From: a virus
Lineage: Duplodnaviria; Heunggongvirae; Uroviricota; Caudoviricetes
Virus record (IMG/VR): IMGVR_UViG_2874968258_000006
Strand: one strand, 5' to 3'
DNA: 41,592 nucleotides
Positions 6,001 to 9,000 of the stretch are shown here, one piece after another. Numbering within the stretch: the first letter of the stretch is position 1; every line of letters starts with the position of its first letter. Made by a program: the position numbers.

Positions 6001-9000
6001 GTCGCTTATGCATAGAACTGGTCGCAAGTGGTGATGTATATAATTCTGGCTACGGCTTATTCCCGTCTGAACAGGCTCGCAAGGACTGGCAAAGCGCCCG
6101 CAAAAAACTCTCGAGAGTAAAGGTGAGGAAACCGGTTGTTGTTGATCCGGACCTTATCTGGTCATTACCTGACGGAGAAATACGCCGCTACGACAGGCGC
6201 CTGAATATAATCTGTCGCGAGTGCCGGAAGAGCGAAGCTATGCAGCGTGTACTGGCTTTCTATCAGGGTAATTTTCAGGAGGCGATACTGTGAATGAAAT
6301 TAGCTATCAGGCTTCAATTACCGCTGGCATTCGCATCAAAGGAGAGGAGCATGGAAATAAAACCAGAAGATGAGTTAAGCAATATCGTTTTATTTCCGGT
6401 AAAAGAGGATGACCCTCGTAATCAGGTTAATTTTCTTTATGAGCCATCGGAAAGACCATATTGCCATCACGCCTCTGTATGAGGTGTACTGGCAATAGCG
6501 GACACTACCATTTGTTCTTTTTTTAAGCAGCCATCTGATGATATTTTTCCCTGAAGGCTGCCGGGGAGATATTCCCCAGACGAGAGTGACGACGCTGACG
6601 ATTGTAGAAAATCTCAATGTATTCCCGTATTACTGAGATGGCTTCATCCCGGTTATTAAAACGATAGTGGCTCAGGCTCTCATTTTTCAGCGTTCCCCAG
6701 AAGCTTTCCATCGGAGCGTTGTCGTAACAGTTACCTTTACGCGACATTGATGTTTTCAGACCAGACTGCTCCTGTATGACCCGGTAATCGTATGCGCAGT
6801 ACTGTGAACCTCGATCAGAGTGGTGGATTAGCCCGGCAGGTGGGCGCTGGCTCCTGAGCGCCATAAACAGGGCTTTACCTGTCAGCTCTTTTGTCATGCG
6901 CTCTCCCATGGCGTAGCCGACAATTTCGCACGTATAAACATCTTTGATGCCAGCGAGGTACAACCATCCCTCCTGTGTGGCAACATACGTCAGGTCCGCC
7001 ACCCAGACCTGATTTGGTGCTGTAGGAGCGAACGTCTGGTTCAGCAGATTTGGCGCAACTGGCAGATTGTGGTTCGAGTTCGTAGTCGCTCTGAACTTGC
7101 GTTTCTGCTTACAGCGTAGCCTTAGCTCCTTACGAAGACGTGCCAGTCGGTCACGACCAACGATGATGCCATTCTCTGCCAGCTCCGTCTGGAGCCGCCG
7201 GGTTCCATATGTTTCGCGAGTGCGGATATGTGCCACCTTAATCTCCAGTTTTAGCCGCTCATCACTTTGTTTTCTGTCTGAGGGTTCATGCTGTACCCAG
7301 TTGTAATAACCGCTCCTGGATACACCAAATACCTGACACATCGCTTCAATGGGAAATTGTTGTCGCCATTGTTCGATTAACGCGTATTTTTCAGCGACTC
7401 CTGTGCAAAATACGCTGTTGCTTTTTTTAATATATCTCGCTCAAGGCGAGCTTCATTTAACGCCTTACGCAGTTGCAGAATTTCAGATTCCAGTTCAGCC
7501 ACCGTGCGGGAACCAGGAGTACCGAGCCCTTTTCTGGCGGCGGTAACCCATTGTCCTAAAGTGCCTTCAGGAAGAGATAATCGGGAAGCGCCTTCACTGA
7601 TCGAAAGTTGATTTTCAAGAACCGTTCTGACAGCTTCGGCTTTGAACTCTTTAGAGTAACGTTGGGTTTTTCTGCTCATTATTAGCTCCTTCTGATGCCA
7701 TTCTATTTCAGGAAGGAGTGTCCGTTAAACTCAGGCTACCTCAGTACGGGTTGACGAAAAAGAGCGTCAGGTCCGCTGTAAAATCTGCGGTGCGGTTGTG
7801 GAGCCGTTTGACTGGATGCTCTCTGTGGCAAAAAGAGAAACCAGACTGGCAGATGATGTAAGGCTATTGCGCCAGGAGGAACAGGAAAGGCGGAGAAATA
7901 TAGAAAAGCTGATACAGATTGAGCGTAACGCGAAAGCGCGGATACGCAGGGCGACAAAATCCAGAACTGAATAATTAAATTTAGCACTGTTAAAAATTTA
8001 ATCCTTAACCGGAGGGATTTCTGCACCCTCAAATCATCAGGAGACCACCCGAAAGGGCGGGGAGCAGTCACACATCTGTTTCCGATAGCCCCGTTCTAAT
8101 GCTACACTCTTTGATATTTTTATGACCCCAATAAACATATTTATGACAGTTGCTGATTTCAAACGGCCCAAATTGGAGCTCCCAAACGGGGCAAACAAAC
8201 TACTACTGCACTCTTGCTGTGCTCCATGTTCCGGTGAGGTGATGGAGGCGCTTCAGGCCTCGGGAATCGACTACACCATCTTTTTCTACAACCCGAACAT
8301 TCATCCTCAGAAAGAGTATTTAATTCGTAAGGATGAGAATATTCGCTTTGCTGAACAACACGGCGTGCCGTTTATTGATGCTGATTACGACACAGACAAC
8401 TGGTTTGAACGAGCCAAAGGAATGGAATGGGAGCCCGAACGAGGGATCCGTTGCACCATGTGTTTTGACATGCGTTTTGAGCGGACAGCGCTGTACGCCG
8501 CTGAAAATGGTTTCAGTGTGATCAGCAGTTCACTGGGCATTTCACGCTGGAAAAATATGCAGCAGGTTAACGACTGTGGGCGGCGAGCCGTCGCGCATTA
8601 TCCGGGCATGGTGTACTGGGATTATAACTGGCGCAAGCAGGGCGGCTCGTCCCGTATGATTGAAATCAGCAAGCGCGAAAAATTCTATCAGCAGGAATAT
8701 TGTGGCTGTGTGTATTCTCTGCGCGATACCAATCTACACCGCAAATCTCAGGGACGCCCTCTTATCAAAATTGGTCAACTCCACTACGGTAAAGAAGAGA
8801 AGGAGTGATTTTATGGGGCACCTTTCTGATTGATTTCATATTGGCGAGGTAAGTAGAATGACTGCGGGTGCTTGAGGCTATCTGCTTCAGGCATGAACAC
8901 CAAAAGGCAGATAGAGAAAAGCCCCAGTTAACATTACGCGTCCGGCAAGACGCTTAACATTAATCTGAGGCCAATTTCATGCTTTGCACATGTAGGTTAG

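Follow-up and report, generated by a model that had tools for sequence, protein, structure and literature searches.

The locus examined here raises the question of why a lambdoid prophage should carry a tRNA-modification gene for a step that its host already performs with another enzyme. The window, a 41,592-nucleotide (nt) stretch of Caudoviricetes DNA (IMG/VR record IMGVR_UViG_2874968258_000006), encodes a relative of QueH, an epoxyqueuosine reductase, next to a hok/sok locus. It was colinear, at 99 to 99.8% identity by sequence comparison, with a prophage of Escherichia coli FDAARGOS_944, for which gene calls from the Prokaryotic Genome Annotation Pipeline (PGAP) were available. We consider it very likely that the enzyme is QueH, and reasonably likely that the gene acts in lysogenic conversion by making the reduction of epoxyqueuosine (oQ) to queuosine (Q) independent of cobalamin (vitamin B12); for its physiological role, the odds are roughly even.

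Identity of the gene product

An earlier note on this DNA had assigned the product to the DUF208/QueH family from its Cys motifs and had proposed a profile hidden Markov model search, naming the lack of a significant match as one outcome that would speak against it. The search returned a match to Pfam PF02677 (QueH) over profile positions 1 to 174 of 175 (E = 1.9e-65; 220.6 bits, against a curated cutoff of 23.5 bits), and sequence and fold matches to solved QueH structures backed the assignment, which is far beyond chance. RefSeq gives this exact protein the name "epoxyqueuosine reductase QueH."

The best sequence match in the PDB was Thermotoga maritima QueH (7lc5/7lc7; E = 5e-22; ~30% identity). 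In the PDB alignment, the three Cys motifs of the product—HSCCAPC, RCTMC, and YCGC—aligned with C9/C10/D13, CxxC, and CGC of the T. maritima enzyme, and all seven putative metal-ligand residues (C25, C26, C29, C104, C107, C187, and C189 in the numbering of the 221-amino-acid [aa] protein) were invariant in an alignment of 32 homologues. The phage protein thus has the same full-length domain, Cys motifs, and predicted fold as T. maritima QueH (PDB 7LC5 and 7LC7; PF02677/IPR003828) but differs in having C29 in place of Asp13, in ~18 extra N-terminal and 20 extra C-terminal residues that are common to proteobacterial homologues, and in being prophage encoded and coexisting with QueG. Cys is nonetheless what most of the family has in place of D13: among diverse 50%-cluster representatives showing the motif, CCAPC was present in 103 of 107 and CCAPD in 3 of 107.

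An AlphaFold2 (AF2) model computed from the 32 homologues (mean predicted local distance difference test score [pLDDT], 76.6; predicted template modeling score [pTM], 0.76) pointed the same way. Its top five Foldseek matches in the PDB were all T. maritima QueH (E = 1e-10 to 5e-9; target-normalized TM score, 0.70 to 0.74), including, by entry titles, structures of the C9S and D13N mutants, and the next matches after the QueH entries were TtuA-type PP-loop enzymes. The model predicts an adenine-nucleotide-alpha-hydrolase-like fold, as in solved QueH. Judged from its sequence, the gene would encode a working QueH, an iron-sulfur enzyme in which an iron lies next to a [4Fe-4S] cluster.

Reading frame and expression

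The open reading frame (ORF) that the earlier note had placed at positions 8122 to 8808 exists and is open for 228 codons (228 aa) on the plus strand, but its start does not hold. We rejected the ATG at 8122 in favor of a second ATG at 8143. In the allele of E. coli 200177, an in-frame stop lies ahead of the second ATG, so that the first is not conserved; the start called by PGAP and the starts of the chromosomal homologues correspond to 8143, which makes 8143 to 8808 (221 aa) the most likely coding sequence (CDS).

Four phage-borne upstream regions, otherwise divergent, converge ~60 nt before this ATG. The 9-mer TGCTACACT was identical in three of the four, 43 nt before the ATG, and the fourth carried TGCTACACA; in the window, TGCTACACT occurs once, compared with 0.24 occurrences expected. 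A TGCTAnnnT box was found at −39 to −44 in the phage alleles and in the nearest chromosomal homologues. The chromosomal variants (from Erwinia, Scandinavium, Kluyvera, Enterobacter, Symbiopectobacterium, and Acerihabitans) include TGCTACACT, TGCTACAAT, TGCTACCCT, and TGCTATATT, with TGCTACACT at −40 in Erwinia, TGCTACAAT at −43 in Scandinavium and Kluyvera, and TGCTATATT in Acerihabitans; boxes stand at −44 and −42 in Enterobacter and at −43 in Symbiopectobacterium, and Klebsiella aerogenes has TGCTACAGT at −43. The TG is retained in all of these variants, as are the T-A...T positions that belong to an extended −10 element. From this conservation we infer that queH was probably captured with its native sigma-70 promoter and could be transcribed in a lysogen. 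For a reporter fusion, TGCTGCACG is the mutated counterpart of the TGCTACACT box.

No preQ1 or other riboswitch was detected before queH with Rfam models (gathering threshold over the whole window; E of ≤1 over positions 7950 to 8250), and the folding of the leader at 8100 to 8170 was no different from that of shuffled sequences (z = −0.73). A GC-rich hairpin, CCACCC-GAAA-GGGCGG, lies at 8047 to 8064 between the upstream hypothetical gene and queH and is not followed by a T-run. Its counterpart in FDAARGOS_944 is a perfect CCGCCC/GGGCGG stem, and the hairpin occurs only in this prophage type and not in other queH contexts.

An expression pattern different from the one proposed would have queH transcribed mainly from the early rightward operon after induction, keeping the Q-tRNA pool matured during the lytic cycle with no benefit to the lysogen. 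The gene belongs to the delayed-early region and has the orientation of the replication and nin/Q genes, which agrees with such a lytic role, as do the lack of a terminator between queH and its neighbors in our scan and the occurrence of queH in a viable phage, HannyBb. However, the fraction of NAU codons among those for Asn, Asp, His, and Tyr was 0.552 in prophage genes and 0.550 in a sample of host genes, the chromosomal-type promoter box has been kept, and queH remains intact and under selection in cryptic prophages that are disrupted by insertion sequences (IS) and unable to complete a lytic cycle, this window included. Here, an IS3-family element ~360 bp upstream of queH interrupts the hypothetical gene that precedes it, so that queH is no longer joined to the early operon of the phage. 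We regard the lytic role as unlikely.

Distribution, selection, and origin

A search of 5426 complete E. coli genomes, at a threshold of at least 90% nucleotide identity, found queH in 995 (~18%), nearly always as a single chromosomal copy. The host gene queG, by comparison, was found in 5426 of 5426, which bears out the premise of the earlier note that the host uses QueG, and QueH therefore adds to the host enzyme for this step in every carrier and in none takes its place. This differs from the usual signature of QueH, typical though not strictly defining, which is to replace QueG in genomes that lack it. Close relatives of the product are encoded by 189 IMG/VR viral contigs and by a single one of 50,697 deposited phage records, that of the isolated Escherichia phage HannyBb, where the protein is annotated as hypothetical.

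The phage queH lineage is under strong purifying selection. Pairwise ratios of nonsynonymous to synonymous divergence (dN/dS) among four divergent phage-borne alleles were 0.025 to 0.054, with dS of up to 0.45. In a sample of 85 copies from viral contigs, Escherichia albertii, and annotated loci, all 85 were intact (ORF of 221 or 222 aa), 19 DNA alleles encoded only 7 proteins, third codon positions accounted for 47 of 56 segregating sites, and the corresponding polymorphism ratio (pN/pS) was 0.033. These values speak against queH as a neutral passenger, carried along by hok/sok or by the phage backbone without serving any function itself. A passenger could be redundant with queG in every genome and lack a known phenotype, as queH is and does, but the almost complete absence of amino acid change at such synonymous divergence, the intactness of every copy, and the persistence of queH where hok has been replaced make this the least probable of the explanations considered.

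Among species representatives (one genome per species), only E. albertii had queH in a phage context (99% identity). The next relatives were in Scandinavium (92%), Kluyvera (91%), Enterobacter (89 to 90%), Symbiopectobacterium (87%), and Erwinia (86%), and chromosomal QueH of Providencia/Proteus was 84 to 86% identical. The neighborhoods of these genes are nonphage. In Erwinia, the gene order is purL-queH-glrK, and in Providencia, tmcA and purC are nearby; queH has SDR and DUF1543 genes beside it in Scandinavium and DeoR and GH28 genes in Enterobacter. Thus, while the earlier note was right to see a phage-borne enzyme nonorthologous to the QueG beside which it occurs, QueH is not foreign to Enterobacterales. 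The phage and chromosomal genes encode nearly identical proteins and have in common the leader sequence and the TGCTAnnnT box ~43 nt upstream, but their synonymous sites are saturated: dS was saturated between the phage alleles and every chromosomal homologue tested, so the capture is old, and a recent capture was rejected. The proteobacterial QueH subfamily is also unusually conserved, the phage copy being 76 to 80% identical to proteins of Sphingomonas, Stenotrophomonas, Pseudomonas, and Neisseriaceae, and identity alone therefore cannot pinpoint the donor.

A few homologue matches bore implausible organism labels (Bacillus subtilis and "Avacidaminococcus"), which suggests contamination or misbinning. 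In a K. aerogenes contig (positions 3390 to 5588), the chromosomal queH lies directly downstream of genes for an RcnR-like repressor (PF02583) and a NicO/RcnA-type Ni/Co exporter. The arrangement is curious, since loss of Q alters nickel and cobalt resistance in E. coli (PMC9508795).

A cargo slot between conserved modules

In the window, queH lies between the replication module and the nin/Q-like genes, with hok/sok directly downstream. The nin-like setting and the hok neighbor described in the earlier note are both real: DUF977 and replication genes lie upstream, DUF1367, DUF1364, and DUF1133 downstream, and the neighbor is a hok/sok type I toxin-antitoxin locus with sok RNA and with a 51-aa Hok encoded inside the Mok frame. 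Among the best 80 of the 189 IMG/VR contigs, DUF977 was upstream of queH in 75 and HokD beside it in 65.

The slot is fixed, and the downstream neighbor varies. It is hokD in this window and in HannyBb, a DUF1971 gene in the Rac-type prophage of strain 200177, and a restriction-modification pair (Dcm and an NgoMIV-type enzyme) in E. coli O157:H7 Z1832; in Shiga toxin (Stx) phages, 933W among them, hok/sok is present but queH is not. In the Z1832 prophage (contig positions 6872 to 8882), genes for a DNA cytosine methyltransferase and an NgoMIV-family restriction enzyme have replaced hok while the 5′ part of the hok/sok leader was kept, and the slot downstream of queH is therefore a hotspot for cargo exchange.

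The suggestion that queH is a metabolic cargo gene fits this picture, given its patchy presence in 18% of E. coli genomes, the variable slot between modules, the purifying selection, and a promoter-like box inherited from chromosomal queH. Patchy presence combined with a fixed slot between modules is what is expected of a moron. Like the morons of other lambdoid phages (hok/sok, restriction-modification, and Stx), queH is a variable, dispensable gene between conserved modules, and it may have its own promoter. It differs from them in that its product is a housekeeping tRNA-modification enzyme rather than a toxin, defense, or virulence factor, and in that no flanking terminator was found.

It is conceivable that queH is itself defense or counterdefense cargo, the Q34 status of tRNAs altering sensitivity to anticodon nucleases that target Q-tRNAs or affecting superinfecting phages. 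Colicin E5-type enzymes are anticodon nucleases of this kind, the slot in relatives holds defense-type genes (hok/sok and the Dcm-NgoMIV pair), and the title of a 2026 preprint ties Q to phage resistance in Shewanella. Yet no PADLOC defense model matched, there is no evidence of a difference between oQ and Q for any nuclease, and conservation with housekeeping enzymes favors the ordinary reaction. A defense role is, in our estimation, very unlikely.

Proposed function

E. coli is unable to make the corrin ring de novo. In 1988, Frey et al. reportedly found oQ reduction in E. coli and Salmonella to be cobamide dependent. QueG is a cobalamin-dependent enzyme with cobalamin and two [4Fe-4S] clusters (PMC4646009), and QueH is the cobamide-independent alternative (PMC6461909; PMC5372724). 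QueH and E. coli QueG (b4166) carry out the same step, from oQ-tRNA to Q-tRNA (PMC5372724), but are unrelated in sequence and cofactor, and QueG is core in E. coli whereas queH is not.

In the mechanism that we propose, a lambdoid phage lineage captured a chromosomal queH, probably with its native promoter, from an Enterobacteriaceae-like bacterium, and the gene now lies in the slot for variable cargo that separates the replication module from the nin/Q module. Its product would reduce the epoxide of oQ to give Q at position 34 of tRNA-Asp, -Asn, -His, and -Tyr without cobalamin. Since Escherichia and Shigella hosts complete Q through cobalamin-dependent QueG and cannot make cobalamin, the prophage copy would free Q maturation from the B12 supply in lysogens, and B12-independent maturation of this kind would constitute a lysogenic-conversion function. 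Any fitness benefit would be expected under B12 limitation.

The earlier note had also allowed that the enzyme might act on other 7-deazaguanine derivatives and had proposed looking for further genes of that pathway. The substrate would then not be tRNA but either DNA containing 7-deazaguanine bases or, for salvage, nucleosides of the oQ or queuine type in free form. Phages are known to place 7-deazaguanines in DNA (PMC6884629), and T. maritima QueH was crystallized, according to PDB entry titles, with the free ligands GMP and queuosine. Phage Dpd systems (DpdA plus preQ0 synthesis, as in phages 9g and CAjan) share with queH the queuosine/7-deazaguanine chemistry family. However, none of their defining genes was annotated in the colinear FDAARGOS_944 prophage, where the near-identical gene set lacks DpdA/Tgt-like transglycosylase, FolE, QueC, QueD, and QueE genes, a result based on annotation of the closest genome's prophage and not on a profile scan of every ORF in the window. 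An oQ-type DNA base is not among the modifications described in PMC6884629, and nothing points to neofunctionalization, since the product is 86 to 92% identical to chromosomal QueH, a housekeeping enzyme, and has lost none of the conserved residues. The broader substrate suggested earlier found no support, and we give it very little credence.

Several observations weigh against cobalamin-independent Q maturation by queH in lysogens. Confidence in the AF2 model was only moderate. No curated NCBIfam model matched the product, so the PGAP name QueH stems from some other rule, and the product also matched PHROG 3217 (1.9e-138), which is labeled "unknown function." A generic promoter scan, in which a −35 box was required, found no sigma-70 −35/−10 pair directly upstream of queH; inspection of the sequence revealed no recognizable Shine-Dalgarno motif before the ATG at 8122 or the one at 8143; and a scan of positions 7600 to 9800 found no intrinsic-terminator-like site, hence not the terminator of its own that a moron would have. 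Gut habitats are usually corrinoid rich, which weakens the argument from B12 limitation. Any selective benefit would also presuppose a functional difference between oQ and Q in decoding.

The source prophage

The features of the window are listed in Table 1. The prophage is a defective, lambda-like (lambdoid) element riddled with IS. In FDAARGOS_944, its integration site adjoins ybhA and pgl, and that strain is Shigella/enteroinvasive E. coli-like, because it carries ipaH. The PGAP gene order there begins with the integrase and continues to repressor/Cro-type regulators, YdaT, replication genes, YdaV, and DUF977, followed by a small hypothetical gene, queH, hok/sok, a hypothetical gene, DUF1367, DUF1364, and DUF1133 and then by tRNAs, lysis genes, and head genes.

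Table 1. Coordinates, strand, and basis of features in the 41,592-nt window
Feature	Position	Strand	Basis
queH CDS (221 aa), most likely start	8143–8808	+	PF02677; PGAP start in the 100%-identical FDAARGOS_944 copy (WP_012421537.1); start kept in all alleles and chromosomal homologues
In-frame upstream extension, probably 5′ leader rather than coding	8122–8142	+	Stop in E. coli 200177 allele; residues vary among alleles; missing from chromosomal homologues
TGCTACACT, extended −10-like box, putative own promoter (inferred)	8100–8108	+	43 nt before ATG 8143; conserved upstream of phage and chromosomal queH
hok/sok regulatory RNA region (Rfam sok)	8866–9041	+	RF01794, 117 bits against gathering score of 59; E = 3.6e-26
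mok (70 aa), overlapped by the hokD toxin ORF (51 aa, 9036–9191)	8979–9191	+	ORF list; PGAP label "type I toxin-antitoxin system toxin HokD" at the 99.8%-identical locus
Immunity and replication module (helix-turn-helix repressor, Cro/CI, YdaT, replication protein, YdaV, DUF977)	2750–6479	+	99.3% identity to FDAARGOS_944 locus 7893–11625, PGAP annotation
nin/Q-like genes	9767–11207	+	Downstream of queH; PGAP annotation of colinear locus converted to window positions; ORF list
DUF1367	9767–10366	+	PGAP, colinear locus
DUF1364	10366–10656	+	PGAP, colinear locus
DUF1133	10653–11207	+	PGAP, colinear locus
IS3-family IS	6480–7743	−	Missing from FDAARGOS_944, colinear on either side; transposase ORFs in ORF list
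Second IS3-family element, two copies	11468–12716 and 30821–32069		Comparison with FDAARGOS_944
IS2-sized insertion	~13463–14793		Comparison with FDAARGOS_944
IS1-sized copies, two	22544–23318 and 25904–26676		Comparison with FDAARGOS_944
Other IS positions	1–2033 and 35549–36812		

Compared with FDAARGOS_944, the closest genome labeled E. coli, the window carries extra IS, with four near-identical copies or part-copies of one IS3-family element, including that upstream of queH. We take this element to be IS600-like and the second IS3-family element to be IS911-like, names that reflect our reading of the transposase sequences and not the output of a tool. The dense IS pattern is typical of Shigella, and several of the insertions are missing in FDAARGOS_944.

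The tail module of FDAARGOS_944 is entirely gone from the window (22544 to 36800). On the 3′ side of the head genes, an IS1-sized copy is followed by the host genes pgl, ybhD, ybhH (part), ybhJ, and ybhC (23312 to 30820); the integrase end of a second prophage comes after the host genes (32070 to 33450), and tail-fiber genes appear only beyond that. Such an arrangement resembles the outcome of a deletion or rearrangement mediated by IS. One tRNA gene, with a CAT anticodon, lies at 11397 to 11470 on the plus strand; its PGAP equivalent is tRNA-Ile, and its 3′ end abuts the IS at 11468. The equivalent site in FDAARGOS_944 has four phage tRNAs (Ile, Arg, Thr, and Gly), none of them a Q-modified species. 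Rfam matches at gathering level to sRNA-Xcc1 (68 bits; 33761 to 33849, minus strand) and naRNA4 (63 bits; 28938 to 29008, plus strand) are unrelated to queH. At the far end of the same prophage, a 587-aa ORF (38771 to 40534, minus strand) constitutes virulence cargo, its 38771 to 39550 part being 99% identical to ipaHb, a type III secretion system effector E3 ligase gene, of FDAARGOS_944.

Implications

Because the QueH family is well defined and RefSeq already names the protein QueH, the identification itself is not new. When viral Q and deazaguanine genes were surveyed in 2019, no homologue of QueA, QueG, or QueH was found in the viruses analyzed (PMC6884629), and we found no paper discussing phage-borne QueH in the full-text literature that we searched on QueH and queuosine biology, prophages and phages included. 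What we did not find described in that literature is the vehicle, an old, diversified lambdoid prophage lineage in ~18% of E. coli genomes that carries a strongly selected, B12-independent duplicate of a host step.

A stronger proposition is that prophage QueH is a true lysogenic-conversion factor that, by rendering Q34 maturation cobalamin independent, alters translation in B12-poor niches with a measurable effect on fitness or virulence. We consider this a long shot. If it were true, the relevant niches might be the host-cell cytosol for Shigella and btuB-deficient cells resistant to phages and colicins, and no phage auxiliary gene before queH would have been shown to complete the hypermodification of a host tRNA. 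Shigella offers a further connection: both the translation of VirF and virulence require tgt (vacC) and Q modification (PMC1950534), and the same prophage carries an ipaH effector. Expression of queH in lysogens would mean that, when cobalamin is scarce, strains of E. coli and Shigella differ in the oQ or Q state of their tRNAs. Such a difference would be phage encoded and strain specific, and it could show whether the step from oQ to Q matters physiologically.

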